From: Candidatus Woesearchaeota archaeon
GTDB taxonomy: Archaea; Nanobdellota; Nanobdellia; UBA10117; ARS21
DNA length: 56,020 nt
Direction of reading: 5' to 3'
NCBI GenBank assembly: GCA_018698915.1
Contig: JABIPN010000026.1
Span: 1 to 56,020, forward strand
A model generated the notes under the pieces. The model saw only the letters and a list, made by a program, of their open reading frames with translations, ran no database searches and was not told the origin of the DNA. This document shows positions 1,790-32,258 of the stretch, in pieces (position 1 is the first letter of the stretch; the number at the start of each line of letters is the position of its first letter). The position numbers and the translations under genes are program-made.

Positions 1790-1840
1790 CGAAATAGTTT
1801 ACTTAGCAATCTTTATTAAATTTACTCAAAAGGAGTCAAT

Positions 1841-2725: not shown

Positions 2726-3638
2726 TAATTTTCAAACCGTCATTCAAATTAACTTTTGGAGACCAATTTAATACTGTTTTTGCACGTCCAATATCGGGTT
2801 GTCGCTGTTTCGGATCATCGATTGGAAGTTCACGATAAACAATTTCTGAACTTGAACCAGTAATTTCAATAACTTTTTCAGCCAAATCCTTTATTGTAAA
2901 CTCATCAGGGTTTCCTAAGTTAATTGGCATAATTTCACCAGAAGTCATAGTTAGATATAACCCTTCAACTAAATCTGAAACATAACAAAAACTTCTAGTT
3001 TGATTCCCATCACCATAAATTGTAATCGGTTTATTATTTAGTGCTTGAATAATAAAATTACTAACAACTCGACCATCATCTCGAGCCATATTTGTACCAT
3101 AAGTATTAAAGATTCTAACAATTCGAATATCCAAATTATATTTGCGGTGATAATCCATAAATAAAGTTTCAGCAACACGCTTACCTTCATCATAACAAGC
3201 TCGAGGGCCAAGAGTATTAACATTACCATTATAACTTTCAACCTGTGGATGAACTTCAGGATCACCGTAAATTTCAGAAGTAGAAGCTTGCAATATTTTT
3301 GCACCATTTACTCGTGCAAACTCAAGAACATTAACCACGCCCACAGTATTAGATTTAATAGTTTCAATTGGATCAAATTGATAGTGAATCGGACTTGCCG
3401 GGCAAGCCAAATTATAAATCTCATCAACATGTTCTGAAATCTTACCAATAAGAGGATCAGTAATATCATGCGAGACAATTTTGAAATTAGGATTACTTTC
3501 TAAATCTCGAAGATTGTCAATTTTCCCAGTAAAAAAATTATCTAAACAAATAACTTTATTTCCATTATGTTCAAGAAGCAGTTTACAAAGGTGACTTCCC
3601 AGAAACCCAGCCCCGCCAGTAACAAGTATAGTGCGCAT
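2703..3638 (-). CDS. uxs: UDP-glucuronate decarboxylase (UDP-xylose synthase)
   Basis: Long stretches match my memory of UXS enzymes: [81 protein letters not shown]. Confidence 0.88.
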
Positions 3639-3678
3639 AATCTCAACTCAGAGAGAAACTTAAAAAGATATTGTTAAG

Positions 3679-16075: not shown

Positions 16076-16720
16076 CTAAATTGATCCAGTATAAATTATA
16101 TCCTTTGATTTGTAACTCGAATTATATTTTTCGTTAGAATGTGCAGTTTCATTAAATGAAATCAAATTCTTGATATACAAACTTTTCAACTGACCTTCCG
16201 GACTTGCCTTTATTGATTCAACAGAATATTCACCAACACTAGATACATTATCAAAACCCTTTGATCCAATCAATGAAGTTCCTTTATTTGCAGTACTACT
16301 ATTAAAATAAACATCAATTGTTGTACAGTTATAACCAAGATTTGTATTAATTATACTTAAATTAGCAAAGACCTCACAAGTGCTTGCAGCAGCACTTACA
16401 TACAAAGTTGCATTTGGAGAATAAACATCAAGAGTACAATCTCCACCACCTGAAGTGAAATCAACAGAAGTATTGAAAATAGTTGGAGTACCAACATCAC
16501 CACACAATAATAATTTTTTCCGATTTAATAGCTCACCATCATTCCAATCTTTAGAAACTGCCGAATCATAAGCATGTTTTACAATTTCAAAATGAAGCTT
16601 ACTAGTATAATCTTGATTTTCAACAGACATTAAATTTGCGCTGTTTGCATAACTCAGAGACATAATCAAGACTATTGAAATTACAATTAAACTTATCATA
16701 AAAAACTGACCCTTTTTCAT
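16076..16720 (-). CDS. Type IV pilin-like protein (class III signal peptide), minor subunit candidate
   Basis: The ORF track starts at 16756. The internal ATG at 16720 gives MKKG/QFFMISLIVISIVLIM, a prepilin-type N-terminus. It also forms an ATGA overlap with the upstream stop codon. Four Cys and many N-x-S/T sequons. Confidence 0.65.
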   Translation of the reverse strand: MKKGQFFMISLIVISIVLIMSLSYANSANLMSVENQDYTSKLHFEIVKHAYDSAVSKDWNDGELLNRKKLLLCGDVGTPTIFNTSVDFTSGGGDCTLDVYSPNATLYVSAAASTCEVFANLSIINTNLGYNCTTIDVYFNSSTANKGTSLIGSKGFDNVSSVGEYSVESIKASPEGQLKSLYIKNLISFNETAHSNEKYNSSYKSKDIIYTGSI

Positions 16721-17166
16721 AATTTGTCCCATATATACAACCTTATTGATGACCAATTACCATCACTTGAACGATAGGCCAATTGTGCTGAAGCCAAATC
16801 CTGATTACCAAAATTAGACTTCAAATTTGTAATATTATTTCCACCAGCAGTACCTAATGCACCATCATTAATTGGATAACACACACTACTTGTTGAACAA
16901 TAATCTAAATCAAACTCTCGATAATCATCTACAAATCCTGAAACAAAATCTTCAATCAATCCCCAATCTTCTGACTCATATTCATTTATTATTTCATATT
17001 CAGCTAATGATCTTAATATATCAAACGCAAAATTTTCATTATATTCAACTGCAGAATTATCAAAATTATTATTCGAAGTATGCTGCATTCCGGTATACAA
17101 TAAAGAAACAAGTAACACTGCAAAAATTATTTCTATAAAATACATATATCCCCTTTTACCAATCAT
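16717..17166 (-). CDS. Type IV pilin-like protein (class III signal peptide)
   Basis: MIGKRG/YMYFIEIIFAVLLVSLLY N-terminus with Glu at +6. ATGA overlaps on both sides. Confidence 0.6.
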   Translation of the reverse strand: MIGKRGYMYFIEIIFAVLLVSLLYTGMQHTSNNNFDNSAVEYNENFAFDILRSLAEYEIINEYESEDWGLIEDFVSGFVDDYREFDLDYCSTSSVCYPINDGALGTAGGNNITNLKSNFGNQDLASAQLAYRSSDGNWSSIRLYIWDKL

Positions 17167-18242
17167 TTTGAAATTAATACAGTTATTTTTGAAACAAACG
17201 TAGGTCTAACATAAATATTATATGCTGAGTTTACGATTGTTTGATTAACTTGTTTTTTACCTCCAATAAACGTGTAAATTCTACCAAACTCACATTGATT
17301 CTGAGAACTATCTAACTGTTCTGCACCAAATTGTGATTTAGCCAAAGTATTATTACCTAAATAAATAGAATATTCAGTTCCAAGACTTGAGTTCTTAAGA
17401 TTCATATTTCGAATCATGATTAAGTTATTCTTTGTAACTACTTTATCAACATCAAAAAATGTTGCCCCACCAGTAGTCCAGACAGAATCCCAGCCAGCAA
17501 CCGAAGTATCATTAACCGTATACGCAATATAAACAATATCCTCATCATTACCTTCAATATTAAAATCAACACTAACTGTTGCACCATCAGTTCCATTACT
17601 AATAGTAACTAAGTCTCCAGAATCAAGACTAGAATTTTGAGTTCCAATTATGGTAGCATTAGGGAAGAAAAGTTTAGTTTCAAATCGAGAACCAATTTCA
17701 TTACTTCCTGCAGCAATTCCCAAAACATTATGTATGACATTATCAGCTCCAACACCTGAAGTTGCATTCATCCAAATTTGCGCTTTAGGAACACCACCAA
17801 AAGTAATCTTTTCTGAATAAATTGAATTAACATCAACACCAACAGCTTCATAACTTATAAGAAAACCTTCACCACGATTCAAATATTCAGTAAAATTTAC
17901 CATACTAACATTATTTATCAAAAAATCCAAAGCAGTATAATCAACTTCGTAACGATTCCCATTTGATATACCAAATTGCGTCCAATTTCCACGCAAACCA
18001 TCCATTGAAACTGACCCTCCAATAAAATTATTATAACTTGTTTTCCAATTACTTTCCAAAGGCGGACGGTCTACAACTTCTCGAAATAATCGCTTAGCAG
18101 ATTCACAAGCCAAGTCCGAATCAATCTTGTTTCCTTCAAAGGAAGTATGATGGATGGTAACTTTTATTACTCCAACTAAAATAATCATAAAGAAAAAAGC
18201 AACAATAATATATTCACCAACAACAGAACCCTTTTTCATCAA
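17163..18242 (-). CDS. Large type IV pilin-like protein (359 aa)
   Basis: MMKKG/SVVGEYIIVAFFFMIILVGV N-terminus with Glu at +5, as in bacterial pilins. The rest looks beta-rich and carries many sequons. Confidence 0.6.
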   Translation of the reverse strand: MMKKGSVVGEYIIVAFFFMIILVGVIKVTIHHTSFEGNKIDSDLACESAKRLFREVVDRPPLESNWKTSYNNFIGGSVSMDGLRGNWTQFGISNGNRYEVDYTALDFLINNVSMVNFTEYLNRGEGFLISYEAVGVDVNSIYSEKITFGGVPKAQIWMNATSGVGADNVIHNVLGIAAGSNEIGSRFETKLFFPNATIIGTQNSSLDSGDLVTISNGTDGATVSVDFNIEGNDEDIVYIAYTVNDTSVAGWDSVWTTGGATFFDVDKVVTKNNLIMIRNMNLKNSSLGTEYSIYLGNNTLAKSQFGAEQLDSSQNQCEFGRIYTFIGGKKQVNQTIVNSAYNIYVRPTFVSKITVLISK

Positions 18243-18277
18243 AAATAGAAAGCGTCCGGGATTGATAAAAACTATGT

Positions 18278-19423
18278 TTATTCTACAGTCACCATTGCGC
18301 TATGATGATATACTTCATTCTCATATTCGATAGTGGTACGTATTTGATATTGTCCGAGCTCTTGCGGAGGTTCCCACGCATATCTAAACTCTCCAACATT
18401 ATCCGTATACAATCCAATAGTATTACCATTAGGTTCAATTAAGGTAACAGTTGCACCAGACGCAGCACTTCCCTCAATAAACGCTTTTCCTGAGATTTGA
18501 ACATCACTACTCAAAGAAACCGTTGTAGGAAATACAGTTACTTCAACTGAAAGTGCAGTAGGAAATACAAAGAAGAAGAATATGAATATGCTTGCTGAAA
18601 CCATAACCAATACATGTTTAACTCCCGCAATTATTTTTTCTTCAGCAATTTGTCCCGCAATTAACCCTGCACACACAGCTTCAACTAAAGTCATAAGGAA
18701 GAATAAATTTCTAAAGTATTCAAGAGTTAAAGGAGCGCCTTGACTTTGAACAGTTACACCACTAAATGCACCAATTTGCTGAATATATAAAATTGGTGAA
18801 AGAATTTTATAGAGTGCAATAACTACTGCAATAAAAACAAAGAAAATAACATACATTATGATTATCTGTTGACGCATTATAGATTTCCGCTCAGCTTCCA
18901 TATCCTTTATCAAAGTAACATTTTCAGAAAGAGATCCTAATGTTTTTTTAATATCACCGCCGCTATGAAATGCTTCCAAAATAATTGTATTGATACGGCT
19001 AATCAAAACACTTCGCTTCAATTGCACAGTAAATTTACTCCAAGCTTTTGGGAAAGTTAATTTCCAAGACAACCAAATATTAAGTTGTTTTATGTATTTA
19101 GTCAATTTTCCATAATCACTTTTTGAAGCCACATCTATTGCTTGAGTGAGAGTCATTCCTGAAGACGCAGATTGAGCCAAATCTGATAAAAAATGAGGGA
19201 ATTTATCTTCAGCATCTTTAATCTCACGGAATTCAAAGAAACTAATTAACACTGAAGGCAAAATAACTAAAATAGTACCTATTGAAATTAAAGCAATAGT
19301 TGTAGTACTAGAAGCACCAAAGAAAAAAGCAAGCAATCCAATCAAAAAAGGAAATGGAAAAGCTACTGCTGTCCAAAAGATTCTTTTACTCCTAAAGTGA
19401 AACATTTTTTCTATTCGCCCCAT
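18278..19423 (-). CDS. T2SSF-domain pilus platform protein (TadC/FlaJ-like) with a C-terminal Ig-like extension
   Basis: One T2SSF-type domain (FPHFLSDLAQSASSGMTLTQAI ... GGDIKKTLGSLSENV) is flanked by TM helices. The last 90 aa or so (VTVFPTTVSLSSDVQISGKAF..GATVTLIEPNGNTIGLYTDNVGEFRY) resemble a CarboxypepD_reg/Ig-like beta sandwich. Confidence 0.7.
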   Translation of the reverse strand: MGRIEKMFHFRSKRIFWTAVAFPFPFLIGLLAFFFGASSTTTIALISIGTILVILPSVLISFFEFREIKDAEDKFPHFLSDLAQSASSGMTLTQAIDVASKSDYGKLTKYIKQLNIWLSWKLTFPKAWSKFTVQLKRSVLISRINTIILEAFHSGGDIKKTLGSLSENVTLIKDMEAERKSIMRQQIIIMYVIFFVFIAVVIALYKILSPILYIQQIGAFSGVTVQSQGAPLTLEYFRNLFFLMTLVEAVCAGLIAGQIAEEKIIAGVKHVLVMVSASIFIFFFFVFPTALSVEVTVFPTTVSLSSDVQISGKAFIEGSAASGATVTLIEPNGNTIGLYTDNVGEFRYAWEPPQELGQYQIRTTIEYENEVYHHSAMVTVE

Positions 19424-20280
19424 GGTGATGAACTCTTAATTATGATTATAAGCATAGCAGTCATTAAAGGCATACCAATAAATATAACTAAATAATGCAA
19501 AAGCTTAATTGCGCCAGTAGGAACGCCCCCAACCGCACCCATCAAACTAGATATGACAATAAAGAATACCGTACCAACAATTATTGCAGTAATATACATA
19601 TTCATAAGCAAAGTGAGCAGTTTACTAAAACTTTCTAACTTTCGGCGGTATTCATTTACAAAACCCTTTGATTTTTCTTCCAAATATTTAGGCAAATCAC
19701 CACCAACAGTTACACTATTTTTAATTCCACCCAAAAATTCAGTCCACTCAGGACTTGGACTCCGCATTATAGCTCTTTCAAGAACCTTTGGTAAATCCGT
19801 TCCTATTTTATTAACTTCATGATCAATTTTTTGAGCTTCTTCAGAAACTGCAGAATAATCTTTGAATTTCGCCAACATACCAAATACTTGCTGAGGATTA
19901 AAACCACTCTTAGCTAAAGTTGACATGTAAATAGACACAAAAGCTAACGAATTTGAAATTTTATCACGTTTCTCATGTATTTTAAAATTAGGATATAAGT
20001 AAGTAAAACCTGCTGCAAGAAATCCAATAAATATTGCAGCTAAAAGATTTATTATAACTCCAATAATACTAAATCCCAATACAATGAGTGTAATAAATAA
20101 TAGAAAAAGAAAGGTGACTGCAGCAGTCATAAGACCAACTGTAATAATAAATGATGCATAAGTTTCAACAGGCATTCTTATTCGAGCAGTCCTTAACTTA
20201 GGTTCTAATGCCCCAAAAAGATATTTATGTTTTTTTACAAATCCTGAAAATAATTGTGCAGATCGTTCATAAATATCCAT
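19411..20280 (-). CDS. T2SSF-domain pilus platform protein (TadB/FlaJ-like)
   Basis: 289 aa with a single T2SSF domain (SLAFVSIYMSTLAKSGFNPQQVF ... GGDLPKYLEEKS) and flanking TM helices. Its start codon overlaps the ATPase stop codon by 1 nt (TAATG junction). Confidence 0.75.
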   Translation of the reverse strand: MDIYERSAQLFSGFVKKHKYLFGALEPKLRTARIRMPVETYASFIITVGLMTAAVTFLFLLFITLIVLGFSIIGVIINLLAAIFIGFLAAGFTYLYPNFKIHEKRDKISNSLAFVSIYMSTLAKSGFNPQQVFGMLAKFKDYSAVSEEAQKIDHEVNKIGTDLPKVLERAIMRSPSPEWTEFLGGIKNSVTVGGDLPKYLEEKSKGFVNEYRRKLESFSKLLTLLMNMYITAIIVGTVFFIVISSLMGAVGGVPTGAIKLLHYLVIFIGMPLMTAMLIIIIKSSSPWGE

Positions 20281-21983
20281 TACTTACCCATCCTTTCATG
20301 AACTGATTGGGGATTAGTATAATATTGATTAAGAATCTTTGCAACATCATCAAATTTGAATATGTCTTTTTCCGACATCCACTTCAAAATATTAGCACGA
20401 CCCATTATCTCATGATTAATATCTTCAGAACTCATGTTATGTGTTTTTGCTATAGTAGATAATATGTAACTTTCATTCTTTGTAAATCCATCAGTGGCCG
20501 GATCCCAAACAATTGCATCATTTACTCGCAAATCTTTTTCTTTAGCATCAAAACTTTCAACTTCTACAACCTTGCCAACTCTACGTACAAATTTACCTTC
20601 ACGTTTAATTTTTTCTAAGAATATAACAATATCTAAATTTTGTAAAACTGACATTGGCAATTGAATTGGAGGTGTTGTTAATCGATCAATAACTGCATTT
20701 ACATTATCTGCGTGAATCGTGGACAAACCTGGATGTCCTGTTGCCATTCCTTGGAACAAAACATTAGCTTCAGCACCACGAACTTCCCCAACAACTAAAT
20801 AATCAGGTCTTTGACGTAATGCACTTCGAAGCAAATCTTCCATTTCAACACTACCATAATTGTTTGGACCAAAACCAGGTCGAGTAATTTGAGGTAACCA
20901 GTTTGTTTGAGGAAGTTTGAGTTCTGCAGTGTCTTCAATTGAAACAATTTTCAAAGTTGGATTAATAAACATACTCAAAACATTCAACAAAGTAGTCTTA
21001 CCCGTCGCAGTAGAACCAGCAATCAATATTGATTTTTCCTTCTCAATACAAAACCACAAATAAGCCAAAGTTATAGCATCAATTGTTTCATATTTAATCA
21101 AATCAACAGGACTTAATGGTTGAGCGAAAAATTTTCGAATTGTAAAATTACTTCCTCTACGTGAAATATCAGTTCCATAAGTAATCTGGACTCTACTACC
21201 ATCTTCCAATGAACCATCAAGTAAGGGATTTGCAACAGATACAGTTCGACCTGTTTTTTGAGCAAGTTTCATAACAAAAGAATCAAGAAGTTCCTTAGTT
21301 TCAAAAACAACATTTGTTGCCATTTCTCCATAAACAGGATTTCTATGGAAAATAAAAATTGGTAATCCAATACCGTCACAACTAATATCTTCAATATTAG
21401 GATCTTGCATAATTGCCTCAATTAAACCGTGACCTGCTGTGTCTTTAAAAATATAATATTTCATTTTCAAAGCATTTTCTGTTTTTGGAACAATATCTAA
21501 TTTTGACCAAATTTCATCAATTTTTTCATTTAGATAACCGTGCATCTCAGATTTACTATTAACATTCTCAAGTTTAATATCGAGTCTCTCATGCAATTCA
21601 TCTATAGTTCTAGTTACTATTTCTTGAGAATATTCATCTAATGTCGGTTCTACTAAATTATACTTCAAAGTATGGGATTCAGTATTAAATGCAATATTAA
21701 CATACGCAAGAGGTACGGACTGACCATTAAATTCAACATTAATCAAAGAATAAGTATCATTCACCTTTCTCAATTCTTCTACAAAATTAGAAGGGGCCTT
21801 CTTACTCAAAATATGTTCTTTAGGAAGCGAAATTCTTAACGTTTTTTCAACAACTTCTTCAACTTTAACTTCCGATTTTTTCTGTTGCACTGGTTGATCA
21901 ACATTTTCTTTTTCAGTAACCTGATTCGATTTATACTTCTTTGCAATTTTGTTCAAAAAGGCGCGAGAGCGAGGACCAGCCAT
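20280..21983 (-). CDS. Type IV pilus assembly ATPase (FlaI/PilB/VirB11 secretion ATPase superfamily)
   Basis: Walker A GSTATGKTT, Asp box SIEDTAEL, Walker B DYLVVGEVRGAEA and His box TGHPGLSTIHA. Confidence 0.9.
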   Translation of the reverse strand: MAGPRSRAFLNKIAKKYKSNQVTEKENVDQPVQQKKSEVKVEEVVEKTLRISLPKEHILSKKAPSNFVEELRKVNDTYSLINVEFNGQSVPLAYVNIAFNTESHTLKYNLVEPTLDEYSQEIVTRTIDELHERLDIKLENVNSKSEMHGYLNEKIDEIWSKLDIVPKTENALKMKYYIFKDTAGHGLIEAIMQDPNIEDISCDGIGLPIFIFHRNPVYGEMATNVVFETKELLDSFVMKLAQKTGRTVSVANPLLDGSLEDGSRVQITYGTDISRRGSNFTIRKFFAQPLSPVDLIKYETIDAITLAYLWFCIEKEKSILIAGSTATGKTTLLNVLSMFINPTLKIVSIEDTAELKLPQTNWLPQITRPGFGPNNYGSVEMEDLLRSALRQRPDYLVVGEVRGAEANVLFQGMATGHPGLSTIHADNVNAVIDRLTTPPIQLPMSVLQNLDIVIFLEKIKREGKFVRRVGKVVEVESFDAKEKDLRVNDAIVWDPATDGFTKNESYILSTIAKTHNMSSEDINHEIMGRANILKWMSEKDIFKFDDVAKILNQYYTNPQSVHERMGK

Positions 21984-22013
21984 GGAGAATTTAATATTCC
22001 AATCTATAAATAT

Positions 22014-22502
22014 TTACTGGCTAGCAAATTTCAGGCCCGCACTCGTATTATATTCCAGAATATATTCACCATTTGATGAGAAAGCATAAGATTTGATTAC
22101 GGGAAGCTTAGTATTTATTTGTTTGATAAAGAGAACACCCACAGATCCAAATTTACTTGAGCCCTGACGTGAAACAACAAGTTCAGGATCACTTAAAAAA
22201 GCGCTAGCAGAATTATTAAGTCCACTAGCTCTCAAAGAAATAGAATAAAGATCAGTGCCAATATGATTGGGAATATTGTTACGTATTCTAAATATTGTTT
22301 CAGAAGTATTTTCATAATTATTCTCAATAAAATAAATATCAGATTCAACTTTTTCAATCAAAAGATTGATTTGCTCTTCAGCCAAAAATTCAGAATTTGT
22401 ATCTCTAACATTCATACTCCAAATCAAAACTAATGCGAATATAGCAACACTAATCACTGTTAGGATTCCCAAATAAATTGCACTAATTTGACCTCGTTTC
22501 AT
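22014..22502 (-). CDS. Type IV pilin-like protein (class III signal peptide)
   Basis: MKRG/QISAIYLGILTVISVAIFALVLIW N-terminus. 4-nt overlap with the upstream gene. Confidence 0.6.
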   Translation of the reverse strand: MKRGQISAIYLGILTVISVAIFALVLIWSMNVRDTNSEFLAEEQINLLIEKVESDIYFIENNYENTSETIFRIRNNIPNHIGTDLYSISLRASGLNNSASAFLSDPELVVSRQGSSKFGSVGVLFIKQINTKLPVIKSYAFSSNGEYILEYNTSAGLKFASQ

Positions 22503-23104
22503 GTTATATCAATTTTAACTACTGGTTTATTTATTGTTGGACATGAAGTTTCAGCAGTAGTATTTGAATAATCATAAGTAAGTAAAATACTATGTTTTCC
22601 TTTACCCGCACCAGTATTATCACCAAGCCCAAGTCTAATTCCAACACATTCATTATTTACTGTATCATTCAACAACGGAAAATATATTTGATAAACAATC
22701 GCACCTTGTTTTGTAATACAACTAGAGGTATCAGTTCCAACAACACCAATTCGACTACTGTTTAGACAAGAACCACCTGAAGTTTTATTATATCCTTTAA
22801 CCACAATTCGTTCCCCACTCATACTTGGTAAATTCACAATACTCGTAAATTCAATAGTTGCATTATTTTTCACTCGCAAAAATCCTTTATCAATATCAAA
22901 ATTAATACTTCGTTGAGTTTGCTGAGTTGCAACTTCATGAATTGCATTATCCAACATTCGCAAGTTCGATTCCATTCTAGAAACCTCATTTATATTATTT
23001 GATCTTTCAATCAAAGGATTTGCCCAAAAGAAAACTATTGCAGTAACCGAAAGCATGATTAAAGTTAGTAAAGTAAATCCAATAATCTGCGCTTGACCTT
23101 TCAT
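22499..23104 (-). CDS. Type IV pilin-like protein (class III signal peptide)
   Basis: MKG/QAQIIGFTLLTLIMLSVTAIVFFW N-terminus, four Cys and several sequons. It abuts the upstream gene with no spacer. Confidence 0.6.
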   Translation of the reverse strand: MKGQAQIIGFTLLTLIMLSVTAIVFFWANPLIERSNNINEVSRMESNLRMLDNAIHEVATQQTQRSINFDIDKGFLRVKNNATIEFTSIVNLPSMSGERIVVKGYNKTSGGSCLNSSRIGVVGTDTSSCITKQGAIVYQIYFPLLNDTVNNECVGIRLGLGDNTGAGKGKHSILLTYDYSNTTAETSCPTINKPVVKIDIT

Positions 23105-24967
23105 TTAACTAACCTCCGTTGAATTAACTTCTGAACTTACACCAGTACTCTTTGTGAAAATCTCTAGTTTTTCAAAATATTTACCATTCGCAGTTTTTAC
23201 AGTAAATTTAGTACCTGGAGAATATTTACTTATATCACAACTACTATCTTCAATTGAAATATTCAATAAAGTACAATCACCTTTCTTAAGAATCTGATTA
23301 CATCCCGTTACACAAGCCGGCTGTCTTTCAGTACAAGCAGTATATGAAAATAGTTTTTGAACTTCAGGATAAGTATTATCTTGATAAACTCGAGTTTCAC
23401 TTAAGAAATTACCGTTGCCAGAATTAATATTAAATTTAGTAATTGTACCATGCGTTCCATTAGTCCCCCCAAGATATAGATTATCACCTAAAAAATCAAA
23501 AGTTAAGGGGTTGACTCCGGAACCTACAGGCGGACTTATCAATTCCGCGTTATAATTACCTTCGCTATCACGAATTCCTATCACTTGAAATCCTGGAGCA
23601 CCAATTCGCGCAGTAAGAAATAACATAACTTGATTACTATTTTGATGATATTTCATTTCAACAATATTATATGATGGATCTACTCCCGCAGTCATCAAAT
23701 CAATACAATGCAGTTCTGTGTTTTCTTGATTTTGACCGGTCCAAAAAACAGAAGGAAATTTATTACCACTACTATTTGTTAAGTTATTTATTGCAATAAA
23801 TATAGGATCACTGTTAACTTTACTACTATTTGTAAACTCAGGAACATGTAACATTGCAGGAACCCCTTCAATAGTTAAACCACAACCAACAGGATCAATA
23901 GTAATTCCACATTGAGAAAAAGAGGGAATATCATAAGGACAAACTGTTCCAGGATTCTCATAATTAACTTCTATACCTACAGTGAGATCTTGAGTCTCAT
24001 CAATAAATGGTGCAGCACCCTCATCCAAACTACCAGTTGTACCAATAAGCAATTGAGTTTGTCCCATTCTAACTATTTCCCGAAGTGCAGTAACTTTAGA
24101 ATTTACAATATTACGTCCACCTAATCCGAAGCCAGTCAAACGCTCAGGAACATCATAAGCTGCAAACTGCTTGGTAATAATTGCAGTTTTTGGATCTCCA
24201 AGTAACGGATCAGTAAGTGCACCACCTCTAAATAATGATAAAGAGACACCGGGAATTTCTCTTACCATTTCTGCACTATGGAAAATTGTAACATTCTCAT
24301 CTAAATCCGTAATACCATAACTATTTCCTTTCAAAGTTCTATCAAGAACTGAAAGAATGGCTTTTCGTGACCCTGCAGGTTTGGCTACAGTACCCATAAG
24401 TAACATATTTTCAGGATTTCGAGTAGAATTTCCTCGCTCATTAAATCCATCCAAATAAGTAAAATTAAACAAACTATAGCTATTATATTCTGAACTTATT
24501 GAAGAAGTAGTCCAATTTCCACCATCAGTTGAAGACACAGTATACATTCCCGTTACTGAAGCACTAGATCCTCCAAGAACTCCGAAGAGCGTAGTAACAT
24601 TTGTGTTACATTCTCCACTAAAATCTCTTACAGCACAAATCAATTCAGTTCCAGCACCATATCCTTCATAAATTTCAAGACGGAGTTCATCTGCTGCAAG
24701 ATTTATAGATTTTTCATCAGCACAAATTTGAGTTACGTACTCAGCAAAATTATTTATATTAACTTCACGATTTACACTATATGCGGCATCAATTAATGCG
24801 GAAGTTCTACTATTAATTTGATCAAAAACATTGGTTTGATGCATTTCAGCCTGAATTTGAGCATCATCTTGCCCAGAAGAATACCAATAAAAGAAACTAC
24901 CTGCAGCAACCATTACCATCACAATTAATAAAATAATACTTACAACTTCAGAAACACCCTTTCTCAT
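23105..24967 (-). CDS. Giant pilin-like protein (620 aa): pilin N-terminus, a large inserted domain and a pilin-type Cys module; candidate tip adhesin
   Basis: N-terminus MRKG/VSEVVSIILLIVMVMVAAGSFFYWY. The C-terminus (ACVTGCNQILKKGDCTLLNISIEDSSCDIS) repeats the Cys motif of the small pilins. About 450 aa lie in between. Confidence 0.65.
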   Translation of the reverse strand: MRKGVSEVVSIILLIVMVMVAAGSFFYWYSSGQDDAQIQAEMHQTNVFDQINSRTSALIDAAYSVNREVNINNFAEYVTQICADEKSINLAADELRLEIYEGYGAGTELICAVRDFSGECNTNVTTLFGVLGGSSASVTGMYTVSSTDGGNWTTSSISSEYNSYSLFNFTYLDGFNERGNSTRNPENMLLMGTVAKPAGSRKAILSVLDRTLKGNSYGITDLDENVTIFHSAEMVREIPGVSLSLFRGGALTDPLLGDPKTAIITKQFAAYDVPERLTGFGLGGRNIVNSKVTALREIVRMGQTQLLIGTTGSLDEGAAPFIDETQDLTVGIEVNYENPGTVCPYDIPSFSQCGITIDPVGCGLTIEGVPAMLHVPEFTNSSKVNSDPIFIAINNLTNSSGNKFPSVFWTGQNQENTELHCIDLMTAGVDPSYNIVEMKYHQNSNQVMLFLTARIGAPGFQVIGIRDSEGNYNAELISPPVGSGVNPLTFDFLGDNLYLGGTNGTHGTITKFNINSGNGNFLSETRVYQDNTYPEVQKLFSYTACTERQPACVTGCNQILKKGDCTLLNISIEDSSCDISKYSPGTKFTVKTANGKYFEKLEIFTKSTGVSSEVNSTEVS

Positions 24968-25015
24968 AAAACTAACAATATGTTTTCGTTAATATAATTT
25001 ACTAGTAATAGACAA

Positions 25016-25546
25016 CTACTTCCCAAATGCACCACCAGCAGTTGAATGACCACTGAAATCCAATTCAAACATAAAGTCAGTATTATTTGTATAAGTTGTA
25101 AGGCTACAATCGCTTGATAAACTCATTGCAATTTTTTGTGTTTCACCTATATCAATAGAATCTCCGCATCCAGCACTACAACTTGCATGAGAACTATCTA
25201 AATATGTTGAACATATAACTTTTCCACCAGCTTCCTGCAAAGTAAATGTAGTGGTGGGGTGACTTGAACCAGTCTCAACAGGAATATCTGTTCCACCTTC
25301 ATTTTTAACATATAAATTCAATGTACTTCCATCTAAATCAGCTACAATTATTCCTGCACGAGTACTAATTGTTTCAGCCAAATTACTTGAATGACTTTCA
25401 GAGCCACCCTGAAGTTCACTCTGCATCCTTACAAACCAGAAAAAAGCAGCACCCGCAGCTGCAACTGTCATCATCATAAGTAAAATAACTGCGATAATCG
25501 GAGTTATTCCTTTCTTGTTCCGCTTCCCAATTTTTCTTAATTTCAT
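25016..25546 (-). CDS. Archaeal type IV pilin (Pilin_N/DUF1628-type N-terminus), major pilin candidate A
   Basis: MKLRKIGKRNKKG/ITPIIAVILLMMMTVAAAGAAFFW is the archaeal pilin N-terminal domain pattern. The globular part carries C..C..GCG....C. Confidence 0.8.
   Translation of the reverse strand: MKLRKIGKRNKKGITPIIAVILLMMMTVAAAGAAFFWFVRMQSELQGGSESHSSNLAETISTRAGIIVADLDGSTLNLYVKNEGGTDIPVETGSSHPTTTFTLQEAGGKVICSTYLDSSHASCSAGCGDSIDIGETQKIAMSLSSDCSLTTYTNNTDFMFELDFSGHSTAGGAFGK
25436..25546 (-). repeat. 111-bp pilin 5' cassette, copy 1 (partner at 28679-28789)
   Basis: 110 of 111 nt are identical to 28679-28789 by direct comparison. It covers codons 1-37 of the pilin gene. Confidence 0.9.
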
Positions 25547-26082
25547 ATTTCAAATTGTCCTTTTAGCGGAGTGACTCCACTAAGCGTAATATCTACAGCA
25601 ACCGTTGAACCATTACTCTGACTTGATATATCACATTCACTATTTGTTAAATTTAATTTAATTGTCCGACTATCTTTCAGCACCAAATCTGAACCGCAAC
25701 CAGAAAGACACTTAGTATCATTAGTACCATCACCATCTGAATCTAAACCACTCCAATCTGAATTACAAAGTATGTCTCCATCACTATTTGTTAAAGTCCA
25801 AACAGATTTTGGACTATTTCCCGAATCAGAAATTGGTATTTTAGTAGTTCCAGTATTTAATGCAACAATTTGCAAAATCTCAGAAGTCCGATTATAACTT
25901 GAAGTTTGCCAAATTACTGAAGAAGTCATGGCTTCAAAAGTTGAATCTTGGTGCGCTTGAGTTCCACCTTGCAGTTCGCTTTGGATTCTCACTAGCCAAT
26001 AAAAACTAGAACCGGCAGCAGCAACAGTCATCATTAATAGAAGAATCATTGCAACAACCGGAGTCAGACCTTTCTTTGACAT
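25543..26082 (-). CDS. Archaeal type IV pilin (Pilin_N/DUF1628-type N-terminus), major pilin candidate C; first gene of the operon
   Basis: MSKKG/LTPVVAMILLLMMTVAAAGSSFYW N-terminus. It has the same Cys pattern, and a TATA box lies 23 nt upstream of its ATG. Confidence 0.8.
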   Translation of the reverse strand: MSKKGLTPVVAMILLLMMTVAAAGSSFYWLVRIQSELQGGTQAHQDSTFEAMTSSVIWQTSSYNRTSEILQIVALNTGTTKIPISDSGNSPKSVWTLTNSDGDILCNSDWSGLDSDGDGTNDTKCLSGCGSDLVLKDSRTIKLNLTNSECDISSQSNGSTVAVDITLSGVTPLKGQFEI

Positions 26083-26105: not shown

Positions 26106-26113
26106 TATATAAA
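26106..26113 (-). promoter_or_regulatory. TATA box (TTTATATA on the minus strand) for the pilin operon
   Basis: Its centre is about 27 nt upstream of the ATG at 26082, which implies a leaderless or near-leaderless transcript. Confidence 0.4.
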
Positions 26114-26118
26114 TCTCG

Positions 26119-26538
26119 CTATTTCGTTCGACGATAAGTAACCGGCATTCCCTTCGGAAAGCGTTCTTTGAAATATGATTTTCTTTTTACTGAGCGATGT
26201 AAAGCTTCAGTCTTTTCAGACAAATTTTGATTAGAAGCCTCAAGTCTTTCAATCCGATCAATCAATTCAGCAAGTCTATCAACTTCACCTTCTTCCTCAC
26301 TTTCAACATCTTCAAAAACCTGCATAATTTTTTCAAGTTTAGCAGTCATCTTAACTAGATTCTTAACAGTTAGCTCAAATTTATTTTCAATTTTCTGAAC
26401 ACTATTCAAAATATTCAAATATTCTTTTGGAGCATTAGTTTTTTTAGTTAATTCTTCTCTCAATTGCTTCATTTCAGTCTGTAAATCCTTAAGAGGCTTC
26501 ATCGGAATTAATTCATACTCTTCACTCTTACTAACCAT
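26119..26538 (-). CDS. Coiled-coil hypothetical protein
   Basis: 139 aa with heptad-like K/E/L-rich sequence and a basic C-terminus. No TM helix and no recognised motif. Confidence 0.5.
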   Translation of the reverse strand: MVSKSEEYELIPMKPLKDLQTEMKQLREELTKKTNAPKEYLNILNSVQKIENKFELTVKNLVKMTAKLEKIMQVFEDVESEEEGEVDRLAELIDRIERLEASNQNLSEKTEALHRSVKRKSYFKERFPKGMPVTYRRTK

Positions 26539-26595
26539 AAAACTATATGTTACTCTTTAAATAAAAATCTTGCTTTAATCTGCCCAAAAACAACC

Positions 26596-26603
26596 CTTAA
26601 AAG
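26596..26603 (+). promoter_or_regulatory. TATA-like box (CTTAAAAG) for the thermosome gene
   Basis: Its centre is 24-25 nt upstream of the ATG at 26624. Confidence 0.3.
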
Positions 26604-26623
26604 TTTTCTCCCAAGCTAAGAGT

Positions 26624-28243
26624 ATGTCCAATCAAAACATCCAACCAGTATTTATTTTACCTGAAGGATATTCTAGAAATCAAGGAAGAACTGCACACAA
26701 AGCAAATATCGCAGCAGCAAAAGCAGTTGCAGATACGGTAAGAACAACTTTGGGTCCAAAAGGAATGGACAAAATGATTGTTTCAGGAAGCGGAAGAGTC
26801 ACAATAACAAATGACGGAGTAACAATTCTTGATGAGATGGAAATTGAACATCCAGCAGCAAAAATGCTTGTAGAAGTTGCAAAAGTTCAGGAAGCAGAAG
26901 TAGGAGATGGAACAACAACAGCAGTAATCTTGGCCGGAGAATTACTAAGTAAAGCTGAACAACTTCTAGATAAAAATATTCATCCAACTGTAATCGCAAA
27001 AGGTTACGAACTTGCAGCAGGAAAGACACAAGATCTAATAAATAAATTATCAGAGAAAATATCAATTAAAGATAAATCACTTTTAATCAAAATTGCAGCA
27101 ACAGCAATGACCGGAAAGAATGTTGAATATGAAACCAAACAAAAACTCTCCAAAATGGCAGTTCAATCAATAATGTCTGTCGCAGAAAGACAAGGAAATG
27201 AAATTACGATCGATTTGAACGACATTAAAATTGAAAAGAAACCAGGAGCAGATACTGAAGATTCGAAATTAATTGAAGGAATTGTAATTGATAAAGAACG
27301 AGTTCATTCTTCAATGCCGCGAGAACTAAAAAATGCAAAAGTTCTGTTATTAGATACACCACTTGAAGTAAAAGATACAGAGATTGATGCAAAGATTCAA
27401 ATTACATCTCCAAGTCAAGTTCAAGAATTTATTGAACAAGAAGAATCAATGCTAAGATCAATGGTTGAATTAATCAAAAAGTCTGGAGCAACAGCAGTTT
27501 TCTGTCAAAAAGGAATTGATGATACAGTTCAACATCTATTAGCAAAAAATAATATTTTCGCAGTACGAAGAGTACGTGAATCTGATATGAAAAGAATGGC
27601 GAAAGCAACCTCTGGACGAATTATAACTTCACTAAAAGATTTAGAAAAAACAGATTTAGGAAAAGCAGGTTCAATCTCAGAAAAAAAGATATCTGATGAA
27701 CACATGATTTTTGTAGAAAAATGTTCAAAAGCAAAAGCAGTGACTTTGTTGGTTCGAGGCGGAACTGACCATGTTATTTCTGAAGTTGAGCGAGCTTTAA
27801 CTGATGCAATTGGAGACATAGCAGCAGCAATTTCAACAAAACAAGTTGTAGCTGGAGGATCAGCAATCGAATTAGAACTTTCCAAAAATTTACGAAAATA
27901 CGCAGAATCATTTTCAGGAAGAGAACAATTAGCAGTAATTGCATTTTCAGAAGCTCTTGAAGTTATTCCGATAACTCTTGCAGAAAACGCAGGATTAGAT
28001 CCAATTGATACTTTGGCGCAACTAAAAGCCAAACACGATTCCAAAAATAAATGGGCGGGATTGAATGTAATCACTGGAAAAGTTGAAGATATGTGGAAGA
28101 AAGGAGTAATTGAACCTTCAAAGATAAAAACTCAAGCAATTTCAAGTTCAAGCGATGTCGCAATAATGCTTCTAAGAATCGACGATATAATTTCTGCACA
28201 AGGAAAACCTCAACAATTACCTGACGGAACTCAATTACAATAA
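26624..28243 (+). CDS. ths: Thermosome subunit (group II chaperonin, Cpn60/TCP-1 family)
   Basis: [32 protein letters not shown] and a C-terminal IDDIISA motif. 539 aa. Confidence 0.93.
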
Positions 28244-28789
28244 TTACTTATCGAAATCAGCACCAGTTCCTGCTTGTCCACCAAAATCTAATTCGAAATT
28301 AAAAGTAGTACCGTTTGGATAAGTTGTAGCATTACTAATATCACAGTTAGTTGACAAGTTTACAATAATCATCTTTTGAGAACCAACATCCAGATTACTA
28401 CCTCCACAACCAACAGTACAATTTGCAGAAACACTACCAAATGTTTCACTACAAATAAGCTTGCTATTGCTATCCTTCAAAAGTATATTAGTGGTAGGAC
28501 TCACAGTAGTACTGGTCAAAGTTATAGGAATACTACCTGTATTTTGAAGTATTAAAGTGAAATTTCCATTGTCAATATATTGAGAATGAATCACATCAAC
28601 CATAGAATTAATATTACTACTTAATGTTTCAGAATGTTGTTCTGAACCGCCTTGAAAACTAGATTGCATTCTAAGCACCCAGAAAAAAGCAGCACCTGCA
28701 GCTGCAACTGTCATCATCATAAGTAAAATAACTGCGATAATCGGAGTTATTCCTTTCTTGTTCCGCTTCCCAATTTTTCTTAATTTCAT
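28244..28789 (-). CDS. Archaeal type IV pilin, paralogue B (outside the main operon)
   Basis: The first 37 aa are identical to pilin A (25016-25546), then the sequence diverges. It has the same C..C..GCG....C pattern. Its stop codon abuts the thermosome stop codon (TAATTA). Confidence 0.8.
   Translation of the reverse strand: MKLRKIGKRNKKGITPIIAVILLMMMTVAAAGAAFFWVLRMQSSFQGGSEQHSETLSSNINSMVDVIHSQYIDNGNFTLILQNTGSIPITLTSTTVSPTTNILLKDSNSKLICSETFGSVSANCTVGCGGSNLDVGSQKMIIVNLSTNCDISNATTYPNGTTFNFELDFGGQAGTGADFDK
28679..28789 (-). repeat. 111-bp pilin 5' cassette, copy 2 (partner at 25436-25546)
   Basis: Same as copy 1. The single mismatch is C versus T within GCACC(C/T)GCAG. Confidence 0.9.
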
Positions 28790-29087: not shown

Positions 29088-29597
29088 ATGTCAGAAACGA
29101 TAAACCTAATTACAAATGCCAAAGTATCAAAAAATGATTTCATATTTGATTTCAGAGAATTATATGGACACGCCGAAGACTGGTTAAAGTGGAGACAATT
29201 CACAGTTATTGAAACAAAATACGTGGAGAAAGTTGGCCCAACTGGAAAATCATATGAAATACATTGGCTAACAAATAGAGCTATTGATTCATATTCTCAA
29301 TATAATATTGATGTTATTTGGACTATTTCTGACATGAATGATATCGATGCAGAAATTGAGGGGAAAAAATTAATATTGCAAAAAGGATCAATTAACTTCG
29401 ATATGAGTGCGTATTTAGTTGTTGACAAAGAAGATAAATGGTCAAACCAACCATTCCTCAGACTCTTCAAAGAATTTTATGAAAAGTTTATTTACAAAAG
29501 CACCCGAAAGCAAATGCAAGGAGAGTTGTGGCAAGTTGCAACGGAGTTGCAGGCAGAAGTTAAATCCTTCCTTGAACTTTACCGGTATAATCAATGA
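29088..29597 (+). CDS. Hypothetical cytoplasmic protein, first gene of the adhesin operon
   Basis: 169 aa with no signal peptide or TM helix. An ATGA overlap links it to the downstream giant gene. The TATA-like element AAATATTTATATTG lies about 25 nt upstream. Confidence 0.55.
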
Positions 29598-32224
29598 GAT
29601 CAGCTAAAAGCAAATTCAGCGGCGGAATTCTAATTATATTTTTAGTATTTTCTTTAATAGCAACATTCTCGATTGCAACAGCAGACAGTACGGAGGATGG
29701 TTGGAATAGTGATTCCGATGGAGATGGAATGTGGGATGCTGAGGACAATTGTCCAAATTCTCACGGCGGAGACAACTCAATAAATGGCTGTCCGGACGAT
29801 GATGGAGACGGAGTACCAAATCATGAAGATGCATTTCCAAATGATCCAAACGAGGATGCAGATCAAGACAATGATGGAATTGGAGATAATGCTGAGGGAA
29901 GAGGAAGCGGTGCAGAAGATCATCGAGATTCCGATGATGATGGAACGGCAGATTATCGGGACGATGATTCCGATAATGACGGCATCCGTGATTTTATAGA
30001 AGGAGATGAAGATGAAGATGACGACGGAACTCCAAATTATTTAGATTCAGATTCCGACAATGACGGCATCCCGGATTCAGTAGAAGGCGATGAAGATGCC
30101 GACAGCGACGGAATTCCAAATTTTCTAGATACTGATTCTGACGGCGACGGTTACGATGATGAAACCGAAGATGGTCATGACAGTATAGACGCAGATGGTG
30201 ATGGAATTCCCGATTATCTTGACACGGACTCCGACAACGACGGATTATCAGATGCAGATGAAAAAGATAAAGGCACTGAAAGAACTGAAGAAGATTCAGA
30301 TATGGATGGCTTAACAGACGGAGACGAAGTTAATATTTATGGAACCAATCCAATTATACAAGATACTGACGGTGATGGATTGACTGATGGAGAAGAAATA
30401 AATGGAATGAGTAGTGGATCAGAAATGTATACTTCTAATCCCTTAAGTAAAGATTCAGATGGTGACGGATTGGAAGATAACGAAGAAATTCAAGGATTTA
30501 AAAGCTTTGAAGACGTAGAATATTCTGATTTTTGGTATATTTATACAGATCCGAGTAGCGCAGACACAGATGAAGATGGATTAACCGATTATGAAGAAAT
30601 TAGTATAGCTAATTATCATATTACAAATCCAATTATACCAGATACTGACGGTGATGGAATAAAGGATGGTTTAGACAACTGTCCCGGAGAAATTAATGCA
30701 GACCAAAAAGACCTTGATGGAGACGGCATTGGAACTGAATGTGATCCAATCGAGCTTGTCTTCAAAATTCATCCTAAAGATGATGATACTATAACAGAAG
30801 GGCCATATCTTTTTAATGAAGAAATTACATTTTCAGCGGAAGAGTCATACTCATTTGGACAAAAACTTTCTGAAGGCGGAATCGCAACTATTACTTGGAT
30901 ATTTCCCGATGGAACGCTTAGTGACTTTGATGGAACTGCTGATGCAACTGCCGGAACTGAAAAGGATTTAACTTTTGAAAACAGTGGTATTTACAAAAGC
31001 AAAATAGAAGGAAGCTGTGTGCCAATGACGACAGCAGGCGATGGAAGCCTGCCATCTCCACCATCATATGCATTCTATAGGAACAAGGTTGACTGCACAG
31101 TTACAGAAGAGATAGAATTCGAAGTAGAAATCACCAACGGACTTTACGCAGTAATTTCAAAACCGACAGCAGGAATTACAATACAACCAAACCAACAACT
31201 ACTCTTCGAAGAAGATTCATATTCAACAGGAGAACCTATTGATTCATGGATAATTGATTTCGGAGATGAATCCCAACCTTATGGATATTTATCATTCGAT
31301 CAGCAATACAAATGCTATAGTTCAACAGTGGCAACACAATTCTGTAGCACAAATATATTAACCGTTGGCGGAAATTTTGAAGATGGCGCAGCATGTGGTT
31401 GCGGAGATTATACTACAGAAATTTTCCCAACTACCGTAGTTGATATAACTAATTTTGCAGGAAGAAAAACAGGTCATACTTACGAGTCACTTGAATCTTG
31501 TGGAGATGATTTCATTTGTACAGTAACTCTAACAGTCGGAGCCGATTCAGACGACGACGGAACAATTGATTTCACTTCTTCAACAACATTAGACTTACCT
31601 TTCAGTGAAATTTCAGTCTGTTCAGAATTTCCAACTGCCGCAATTTGTACAACGGGTGAATTAAATTTAGATAATGTCTGTGAGCGAGCACCAGAATTAG
31701 AAACATGTCAAGATGATGCAAATATCCCTCCAAATAACCTAACTGGTGGAAATTTCACAAACGAAACAAAAAATTTAGATACTCTTGATCCAAAGATTAC
31801 AGGACAAGAGAGTCATGTTTCTAAAAATACAGCAAATAAGAAACAGTACAGTGATCCATTAGATAACGTGAAGAATGCACAAGGTACAGGAACTGGTGGA
31901 AAAGATAAAGGATCTTCGGGAGCCGGAACAATTTTAGTAATTATAATACTCCTTTCAGCAATTGGTGGACTTGGATTCTATTTCTGGAAGAAAGGAATGT
32001 TTGATGGTTCAAAATCAAAACCGCCATCAACAGACACATTTGAAGCAACACCTGAAACTACAAAATCAGAACCTGAGCCCGCGAAAGAAGAAAAACCAGA
32101 TTCAAGTTCAGAAATACAAGCCTATATAGACAAGGCCAAAGTAGCAGGAGAATCTAATGATCAAATGAAAGAAGGACTCAAAGCAGCAGGCTGGCCAGAT
32201 TCTGAGATTAACAAGTATCTGTAG
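29594..32224 (+). CDS. Giant acidic surface protein: signal peptide, about 18 thrombospondin type 3-like Ca-binding repeats, PKD-like modules, a C-terminal TM anchor and a cytoplasmic tail
   Basis: Repeated DxDxDGxxDxxE/D units ([29 protein letters not shown]). PKD-like ITWIFPDGT and [10 protein letters not shown] helix [19 protein letters not shown] followed by KKG. Confidence 0.8.
29700..30740 (+). repeat. Coding array of degenerate TSP3-like (DxDxDG) repeats
   Basis: GAT/GAC/GGA-rich periodic sequence. It also produces the spurious ORFs at 29634-29849 and 29784-29999. Confidence 0.7.
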
Positions 32225-32258
32225 CAATTATTATAAACTTCTGAGCTTATTTGTTTAC

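Follow-up and report, generated by a model that had tools for sequence, protein, structure and literature searches.

The window analysed here is the whole 56,020-nucleotide (nt) stretch of contig JABIPN010000026.1, an AT-rich sequence (approximately 33% GC) from a Candidatus Woesearchaeota archaeon. Between positions 16076 and 26082, its minus strand carries a run of co-directional genes that probably encode the DPANN version of an archaeal type IV pilus assembly system of the FlaI/AfGspE ATPase lineage, likely to attach the cell to a surface or to a host. Genes for five pilin-like proteins are followed by those for a secretion ATPase, two single-domain T2SSF proteins and three further pilin-like proteins, an arrangement termed a ten-gene operon on the open reading frame (ORF) listing. 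The initial annotation had described a type IV pilus-like operon with these gene sizes and this common direction, and the ORF listing bears this out together with Pfam and NCBIfam matches. In order of transcription, the features are as follows; a slash marks the end of the leader peptide.

25543–26082, minus strand: pilin 1, 179 amino acids, PilA/archaellin-like; N-terminus MSKKG/LTPVVAMILLLMMTVAAAG; TIGR02537 27.2 bits
25016–25546, minus strand: pilin 2, 176 amino acids, PilA/archaellin-like; TIGR02537 37.3 bits; Arch_flagellin 21 bits, below the gathering score of 29.5
23105–24967, minus strand: modular pilin, 620 amino acids, with class III N-terminus and pilin helix; TIGR02537 23.5 bits
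22499–23104, minus strand: U1, minor pilin-like protein, 201 amino acids; W-[GA]-x-P-L-I motif after the helix, family matches DUF7289
22014–22502, minus strand: U2, pilin-like protein, 162 amino acids, directly upstream of the ATPase; class III-like N-terminus MKRG/QISAIYLGIL
20280–21983, minus strand: secretion ATPase, 567 amino acids, arCOG01817/AfGspE-like; Walker A GSTATGKTT, Walker B DYLVVGEVRG
19411–20280, minus strand: platform protein of N-terminal-half type, 289 amino acids, one T2SSF domain; aligns with ArlJ 4–248 of 555
18278–19423, minus strand: platform protein of C-terminal-half type, 381 amino acids, one T2SSF domain; aligns with ArlJ 304–537 of 555
17163–18242, minus strand: D1, minor pilin-like protein, 359 amino acids; KG/SVVGE, Glu at +5; probable true start ATG at 18239
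16717–17166, minus strand: D2, minor pilin-like protein, 149 amino acids; RG/YMYFIE, Glu at +6
16076–16720, minus strand: D3, minor pilin-like protein, approximately 214 amino acids; MKKG/QFFMISLIV, start taken at the ATG whose overlap with the D2 stop is 4 nt; the ORF is 226 amino acids from a TTG (16076–16756)

The genes were initially taken to be joined throughout by overlaps or zero spacers. This holds for six junctions, at which adjoining genes overlap by 1, 4 or 13 nt, and for one zero spacer, but three junctions are true spacers, of 48 nt before the 620-residue gene, 30 nt before the ATPase gene and 35 nt before the D1 gene.

All nine pilin-like proteins of the window begin with a short basic leader that terminates in [KR]G and precedes approximately 22 hydrophobic residues, over which the mean Kyte–Doolittle value is 1.6–2.4 in the eight proteins of the operon. 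Class III-like N-termini occur in nine of the approximately 57 window ORFs, and eight of the nine lie within the operon; this clustering is not chance. Pilins were called with TIGR02537 (the archaellin/type IV pilin N-terminal domain, cut-off of 20 bits) and with a rule combining [KR]G and hydrophobicity. TIGR02537 scores above its cut-off for the 179-, 176- and 620-residue proteins, that is, for three of the eight operon proteins to which class III N-termini had been ascribed, and for a ninth pilin at 28244–28789. A FlaFind-type regular expression matched one of the nine N-termini (that of the 162-residue protein only) and, in the form used, was discarded as unreliable.

Among approximately 55 window ORFs searched against Pfam and NCBIfam, no match was obtained to Peptidase_A24, KaiC/FlaH or FlaF/G, and models of ArlF and ArlG scored 15–21 bits against a cut-off of 110, through the N-terminal helix only. 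This agrees with the initial view that the window holds no prepilin peptidase and that the locus, without FlaH, FlaF/G, FlaCDE or FlaX-like genes, is not an archaellum.

Secretion ATPase and split platform

Related loci were gathered by scanning one genome per species; of the 173 ATPase relatives obtained, the 80 best loci were retained, and their gene content was determined with our own ORF calling and phmmer. They come from eight phyla (Woese-, Nano-, Parv-, Aenigm-, Micr-, Iain-, Undin- and Altiarchaeota). The nearest, with ATPase identities of 75–78%, are Woesearchaeota and Nanoarchaeota contigs from metagenome-assembled genomes (MAGs), here labelled L001–L004, and the source of the window is therefore placed among the DPANN archaea. 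The window also carries archaeal housekeeping genes (thermosome, Hel308, SMC/ScpAB, CCA-adding enzyme, AspRS, AglB/STT3 and SecDF). The ATPase gene and both half-platform genes occur in the same order in 70 of the 80 related loci. An A24 prepilin peptidase adjoins the locus in only two of the 80.

The motor consists, as first described, of one FlaI/VirB11-family ATPase (Pfam T2SSE, E-value of 3e-33) and two separate T2SSF proteins (2e-14 for the 289-residue and 7e-15 for the 381-residue protein). Against sequences from the Protein Data Bank (PDB), the ATPase scores 385 bits with AfGspE (entry 2OAP, E-value of 4.6e-114), 289 bits with FlaI of Sulfolobus acidocaldarius and 137 bits with CpaF. 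This ranking, which is based on three reference sequences and not on a full phylogeny, recurs in 80 of 80 related ATPases (medians of 395, 288 and 149 bits). The NCBIfam FlaI equivalog (NF058587) gives 422 bits, below its cut-off of 550, so the protein is not assigned to the equivalog; the NCBIfam TadA model gives 146 bits, and Pfam PilB3_C gives 22.6 bits, under its cut-off.

The platform is encoded by two half-size genes, since the matches of the two proteins cover the N-terminal and the C-terminal half, respectively, of the NCBIfam ArlJ/FlaJ model. The 289-residue type is conserved in 70 related loci. The 381-residue protein has a C-terminal Ig-like extension of approximately 80 residues (window 18278–18530), resembling a carboxypeptidase-regulatory-like β-domain, with weak Pfam matches to Big_6 and CarboxypepD_reg at residues 314–363. 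Its orthologues measure 366–413 residues in many DPANN loci and approximately 310–320 residues in Aenigmarchaeota. To our knowledge, an extracytoplasmic domain on a type IV pilus (T4P) platform protein has no precedent.

Two further observations concern the ATPases of related loci. In a Diapherotrites/Iainarchaeota MAG (DAOVQM010000003.1, locus L085, 2098–5385), the orthologous pilus ATPase has 1,095 residues and contains, inside the T2SSE domain, an intein that matches Pfam Intein_splicing and LAGLIDADG_3. In six Micrarchaeota and Iainarchaeota loci (L050, L054, L059, L064, L068 and L078), a second, divergent secretion ATPase of 540–604 residues is encoded a few genes downstream of the main locus, recalling the second ATPase of the Aciduliprofundum locus; in L054 and L064 it has a Cys-rich N-terminus like a ferredoxin-like motif.

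Pilins and accessory subunits

Pilins 1 and 2 are, from their sequences, candidate major subunits. They share 33% identity over their full length, and pilin 1 has four Cys residues and four N-X-S/T sequons; across the pilins, the number of sequons ranges from 1 to 11. A third protein of this kind is encoded apart from the operon:

28244–28789, minus strand: stand-alone ninth pilin, 181 amino acids, paralogue of pilin 2; Arch_flagellin 30.7 bits (gathering score of 29.5); TIGR02537 39 bits

The gene lies outside the 16076–26082 span, past a thermosome gene, and the same arrangement is found in L001, L003 and L006. Pilin 2 and the ninth pilin are 51% identical as proteins. The first 111 nt of their coding sequences (25436–25546 and 28679–28789) are identical at 110 of 111 positions, with diverging flanks and remainders, which suggests either conversion between the gene in the operon and its stand-alone paralogue or a strong constraint on the sequence; a scan of the locus for direct and inverted repeats returned this shared 5′ end as the sole real repeat. 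The candidate major pilins, at 176–181 residues, have a conserved Cys-containing C-terminal domain. The profile searches that the initial annotation proposed matched T2SSE and T2SSF, but Pilin_N only weakly, with 13.8–18 bits, below the gathering score of 25.2. Searching PDB sequences with the pilins and a U1 profile gave weak matches to the N-terminal helix only (8FK7, ‘flagellin’, 6e-4; 9MYG).

The 620-residue protein has a modular architecture. Its residues 2–71 and 552–590 align with residues 3–69 and 125–163 of pilin 1, and in the AlphaFold2 (AF2) model an all-β insertion of approximately 480 residues, with the propeller domain placed at approximately residues 75–545, is followed by the C-terminal half of the pilin β-domain. 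The model has a mean predicted local distance difference test score (pLDDT) of 75, rising to 85–93 at approximately residues 220–510, and a predicted template modelling score of 0.71. Its best Foldseek matches in the PDB are seven-bladed propellers (3FGB, 3SCY and 1RI6; E-values of 1e-6 to 1e-5 and target TM-score of approximately 0.6). The protein is thus predicted to be a pilin with a seven-bladed β-propeller inserted in its β-domain, and on this model it is a candidate adhesin-presenting subunit. Modular type IV pilins, such as PilB and PilC of Streptococcus sanguinis, consist of a pilin with a grafted functional module. The 620-residue protein resembles them in combining a full pilin scaffold with a large extra domain, presumably displayed on the filament for binding, and differs in that its module is a seven-bladed propeller within the pilin β-domain and its host is an archaeon. 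PilY1 was not among the top 50 structural matches of the model, the best of which are lactonase-type propellers, and the parallel with PilY1 is one of analogy only.

Among the accessory proteins, U1 is the most widely conserved. Full-length jackhmmer searches merged all pilins into one set through their shared N-terminal helix and were redone with N-terminally truncated queries, with which the globular-domain family of U1 is found in 48 related loci. Trp27 of U1 is invariant in 29 sequences, and 17 of the 29 family members match Pfam DUF7289 (best E-value of 1.1e-6); for a relative that is 44% identical to U1, a precomputed match to PF23960 is listed as weak. The AF2 model of U1 comprises a 60-residue N-terminal helix and a β-sheet, at a low pLDDT of 66, and Foldseek returned nothing significant for it. 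NCBIfam lent no support to U1 and U2 as FlaF/FlaG-like stator proteins, and this assignment was dropped.

In the position of U2, a gene for approximately 139–150 residues with a similar N-terminus precedes the ATPase gene in approximately 34 related loci. A Woesearchaeota relative (L006, 7171–9891) has a U2 gene expanded to 906 residues, compared with 162 in the window, with a large extra region.

U2, D1, D2 and D3 (162, 359, 149 and 226 residues) are recognizable by sequence only in close relatives, while their positions and N-terminal motifs are kept. Eleven of 25 positional or motif relatives of D1 match Pfam DUF7287 (best E-value of 3e-5), and the Asgard counterpart of D2 matches Pfam DUF7288 (4.9e-8). 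The Glu residues at +5/+6 in two subunits, pointed out at the outset, are present in D1 (SVVGE) and D2 (YMYFIE). An acidic +5 column is found in 24 of 25 D1 relatives, a set selected by motif; since these alignments were picked with regular expressions that demand an acidic residue, the apparent invariance at +5 and +6 is partly circular, and enrichment is the fairer evidence. Over 81 loci, the D2 motif G/[FY]-x-[KRHYT]-x-[LIVTM]-E is found in 13.9% of genes at the first four positions after TadC and in 0.3% of other ORFs. The corresponding values are 13.5% and 0.9% for the D3 motif G/QF[FY], and 20% and 4.5% for a looser D1 expression. At the level of sequence, the downstream trio is a set of N-terminal motif classes across DPANN archaea, characterized by an acidic +5, Glu at +6 and G/QFF. 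Pfam N_methyl has no match at E ≤ 1 in any window protein, and none among 21 D2-type and 25 D1-type relatives.

Outside the DPANN archaea, an Asgard locus (Borrarchaeum) encodes, in order, a peptidase A24, T2SSE, T2SSF, T2SSF, a coiled-coil protein, a D1-like protein, a DUF7288 protein with the D2 motif, a D3-like protein and two DUF7289 proteins. A 64%-identical archaeal pilus locus (L005, CAJWSY010000039.1), which like L004 stems from Tara Oceans samples, was deposited under a MAG that bears the label ‘uncultured Chloroflexi bacterium’; the contig is probably a binning contaminant. A 252-kb Woesearchaeota-like contig of JGI sample 3300072015, syntenic with the window (protein P0024), encodes a flagellin-type pilin, a thermosome, a coiled-coil protein, two pilins, a 555-residue pilin and U1, after which come an acetyltransferase and then Hel308, SecDF and SpoIIM.

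Classification, rival readings and proposed function

Archaeal secretion ATPases have been divided into four clades (Makarova, Koonin & Albers 2016, PMC4858521). Clade 2 comprises the arCOG01817 ATPases typified by AfGspE (AF0659, PDB entry 2OAP); its signature is the minor pilin arCOG02911, and its major pilins belong to the PilA family. Two tadC genes are present in many of its loci, the arCOG02911 pilin adjoins the ATPase, and nanoarchaeal members are included (PMC4858521). The Clade 2 locus of Aciduliprofundum boonei encodes arCOG02911 (300 residues), the ATPase, and TadC proteins of 332 and 290 residues (PMC4858521). The sequence comparisons point to the window locus as a DPANN member of Clade 2-like archaeal T4P with an ATPase of the AfGspE lineage, because the ATPase groups with AfGspE, the core gene order equals that of Aciduliprofundum, and relatives of the accessory pilins match DUF7289 and DUF7287. 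The features shared with Clade 2 are an AfGspE/arCOG01817-like ATPase with two half-size TadC genes directly downstream; a conserved, putatively FlaFind-type minor pilin upstream of the ATPase; candidate major pilins that are PilA/archaellin-like and have a globular β-domain; accessory-pilin relatives that match DUF7287 and DUF7289, with DUF7288 in the Asgard counterpart of D2; and a presumed role in adhesion.

There are also differences. In the window, U2 lies between U1 and the ATPase, unlike in the A. boonei locus, although U1 is directly adjacent in several other DPANN loci. Major pilins, propeller pilin and minor trio are encoded in one operon, unlike the PilB3/PilC3 system of Haloferax volcanii, for which PilA is encoded in trans. 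The host is a DPANN archaeon and, unlike at Clade 2 loci, no MinD/FleN gene was found near the operon.

The locus type is therefore already catalogued and widespread in DPANN and other archaea, and is not a new machine. The initial annotation had named a match to a classified archaeal locus type with the same gene complement as the result that would speak against it, and Clade 2 largely provides such a match. It had also held the architecture to be unlike archaeal pili and closer to bacterial minor-pilin systems, a view that the comparison does not support: paired platform genes and numerous minor pilins are both on record for archaea. Of the proposed ‘uncharacterised attachment or uptake filament’, attachment to a host or a surface is a reasonable function. 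Clusters of TadA/TadB/TadC type have been reported in Nanohaloarchaeota and Undinarchaeota (PMC9563170, PMC7414124), and a 2026 preprint by Sivabalasarma & Albers lists systems with two platform genes (‘System 1’, together with part of the subsystem 4A loci) among DPANN archaea. A literature search on DUF7285–7289 and arCOG02911 returned nothing beyond Makarova 2016. The exact full complement, with its propeller-bearing pilin and the trio conserved downstream of the platform, is not described in the accessible text of that paper or of related pilus papers.

In bacterial type IVa pili (T4aP) and type II secretion systems (T2SS), minor pilins form tip complexes, FimU-PilVWXE/PilY1 and GspHIJK. 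The window system is similar in having several dissimilar, presumably low-abundance pilin-like subunits per motor, two of them with an acidic +5 or +6, and, as with PilY1, a pilus-associated β-propeller protein. However, it has no N_methyl match, the Glu at +5/+6 being similar in style only; its propeller is inserted in a pilin and is not a separate non-pilin protein; and it has neither a secretin nor a retraction ATPase.

Several points weigh against assignment to Clade 2-like T4P and against a pilus role. Relatives of U1 match DUF7289, which is only putatively equivalent to arCOG02911; U1 itself matches DUF7289 only weakly (E-value of 0.015), and no Pfam family directly matches D1, D2 or D3 of the window. 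For five of the eight pilin calls in the operon, the basis is our own N-terminus rule together with family relatives, and not a validated predictor. The best NCBIfam match of the ATPase is the FlaI model, and the ninth pilin passes the Arch_flagellin threshold, so kinship with the archaellum is close. With no prepilin peptidase in the window, processing of the prepilins is unproven, and a filament, its adhesive role and a tip complex are putative in this lineage. The syntenic P0024 contig lacks the segment from U2 through ATPase and platform to D1–D3 at this position and keeps the pilin genes. Since this relative retains pilins without motor genes there, the pilin and motor modules are separable.

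Kinship with the archaellum extends to a homologous ATPase and platform, archaellin-like subunits and a class III signal peptide of the same type. For the platform halves, the best alignments are with ArlJ models, pilin 2 reaches 21 bits with Arch_flagellin beside the 30.7 bits of the ninth pilin, and such genes are usually annotated flaB, flaI and flaJ in Woesearchaeota MAGs (PMC11606122). A reduced archaellum, that is, a rotating swimming filament of archaellin-like subunits driven by a FlaI/FlaJ-type motor, is nevertheless very unlikely. The FlaI equivalog score of 422 bits, although the best family match, is below the curated cut-off, and in all 81 sequences the ATPase is nearer to the non-archaellum AfGspE than to FlaI. 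Moreover, seven components, FlaH, FlaF and FlaG among them, were present in every archaellum that Makarova 2016 examined (PMC4858521), whereas the window has no FlaH/KaiC (ArlH), FlaF (ArlF), FlaG (ArlG) or FlaC/D/E/X (ArlCDE/X), its ArlF and ArlG scores falling far short of 110 bits; the platform is split, extra minor pilins are encoded, and a pilin family probably of the Clade 2 signature type is present. An Epd/Tad-type pilus (Makarova Clade 1, ‘System 1’), the archaeal ancestor type of bacterial Tad pili, is the least likely of the readings considered. Clade 1 ATPases are CpaF-like (arCOG01819/COG4962), and its major pilins have approximately 70 residues and no globular domain (PMC4858521). 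The window ATPase instead scores 137 bits with CpaF against 385 with AfGspE, its major pilins have 176–181 residues with such a domain, and its locus has no EppA-type peptidase. The stated hallmarks of two TadC genes, with one ATPase, and at least five minor pilins are present in the window, as in Methanococcus maripaludis and bacterial Tad systems, and acidic residues near +5 in some subunits add to the likeness; the 2026 preprint also counts DPANN archaea among System 1 hosts. However, two tadC genes are likewise present in many Clade 2 loci (PMC4858521).

A short pseudopilus or uptake piston, importing DNA or macromolecules or secreting proteins for a biosynthetically poor cell, is somewhat less improbable than either of these but still unlikely. 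DNA import through the pili of Undinarchaeota and Nanohaloarchaeota has been speculated on (PMC7414124, PMC9563170), and a Hel308 helicase gene abuts the operon; this adjacency is, however, confined to close relatives, and neither the operon nor its conserved neighbourhood holds a ComEC/ComEA-like channel, a nuclease or a DNA-binding gene. The many heterogeneous minor subunits per motor and the acidic +5/+6 residues of two subunits, which recall the pseudopilins of bacterial T2SS and Com systems, would suit a piston, whereas three full-size paralogous pilins with globular domains would not, and a propeller-bearing pilin suggests binding and not transport. High expression in related Woesearchaeota of flaB-annotated genes, which may be orthologues of the window pilins, fits an abundant external filament (PMC11606122).

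An archaeal T4P of the FlaI/AfGspE lineage thus accounts best for the locus, and by analogy it is most likely an adhesive filament that contacts a surface or a host cell. From the observed gene content, protein families and conserved architecture, and from the predicted propeller fold, we infer the following course of cleavage, subunit roles, glycosylation and adhesion. The nine prepilins would be inserted in the membrane and trimmed after [KR]G by a PibD/FlaK-type peptidase encoded elsewhere in the genome. A hexamer of the ATPase would dock on the heteromeric TadN/TadC platform and drive subunits from the membrane into a filament, presumably without rotation. The three archaellin/PilA-like paralogues of 176–181 residues would form the shaft and would probably be N-glycosylated, which is likely because the window encodes AglB and the pilins carry sequons. 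U1, U2, D1, D2 and D3 may be low-abundance subunits that prime assembly and cap the filament, at its tip or its base, and the 620-residue pilin would display its seven-bladed propeller on the filament as a binding module.

It is possible, though rather doubtful, that D1–D3 together with U1, U2 and the propeller pilin represent an ancient archaeal equivalent of the tip complex that minor pilins and PilY1 form in bacteria, common to DPANN, Asgard and haloarchaeal loci. If so, the complex would initiate assembly and place the propeller adhesin at the tip, and in DPANN archaea it would be a device for recognizing, holding or even penetrating the host cell.

DPANN archaea need physical contact with other cells, and the contact molecules are mostly unknown. 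Pili-like appendages have been observed on ultrasmall episymbionts (PMC7906910), and in Woesearchaeota transcriptomes genes annotated ‘flaB’ are among the top expressed, for which host attachment has been proposed (PMC11606122); these may include pilins of the present type, on which flagellar labels wrongly suggest motility. Nearly all of the related DPANN contigs retrieved carry a locus of this type. Its parts list (shaft pilins, propeller pilin, five minor pilins and two-piece platform) provides targets for metaproteomics, cryo-electron tomography and binding assays, the most useful leads being the pilin that bears the propeller and the conserved trio of minor pilins. New here are the propeller-inserted pilin, the downstream motif classes and the recurrent thermosome and coiled-coil neighbours described below.

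Promoter and neighbouring genes

Two features lie immediately upstream of pilin 1:

26106–26113, minus strand: canonical archaeal TATA-box-like element TTTATATA, read from the sequence, approximately 28 nt upstream of the pilin 1 ATG
26119–26538, minus strand: soluble coiled-coil protein, 139 amino acids, with a conserved N-terminal [DE]-[YF]-E-L-[IV]-P-x-x-P motif; the gene has its own TATA-like element

The element TTTATATA is the probable promoter of the operon, and its position suggests a leaderless or near-leaderless mRNA. A tRNA and Rfam scan of the window returned two tRNAs distant from the locus and nothing relevant to it.

The coiled-coil family, as delimited with jackhmmer, occurs in 27 related loci, mostly between the thermosome gene and the pilins, and its gene adjoins the ATPase locus in a thermosome-free Undinarchaeota contig (L017). 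Pfam matches of the 139-residue protein are coiled-coil noise only. It is possibly a cytoplasmic accessory or regulatory component, and its membership of the system is uncertain. No ELIP motif in common with the coiled-coil protein of the Asgard locus was seen, and homology between the two is not claimed.

In the window, the thermosome (Cpn60/TCP1) and small coiled-coil genes occupy 26119–28243, neighbouring the pilin genes. A thermosome gene adjoins the pilins in 23 of the 80 loci, and the coiled-coil gene in 27 of 80, in several DPANN phyla and in either orientation, the thermosome gene being divergent in some loci and co-directional in others. Loci with such neighbours are L001, L003, L006–L008, L012, L013, L031, L033, L034, L037, L041, L043, L045, L046, L052, L055, L069, L076 and L079. 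Adjacency kept across phyla through changes of orientation is unusual for unrelated genes.

Beside the stand-alone pilin, on the plus strand (29594–35771), two very large secreted proteins of 876 and 1,170 residues are encoded, with Sec-type signal peptides and TSP3, FG-GAP and PKD repeats; they are candidate surface adhesins. At 701–7979, a glycosylation cluster encodes a GtrA-like protein, a GT2 glycosyltransferase, two NDP-sugar epimerase/dehydratases, a 599-residue membrane protein and AglB/STT3, and is the likely source of the pilin N-glycans.

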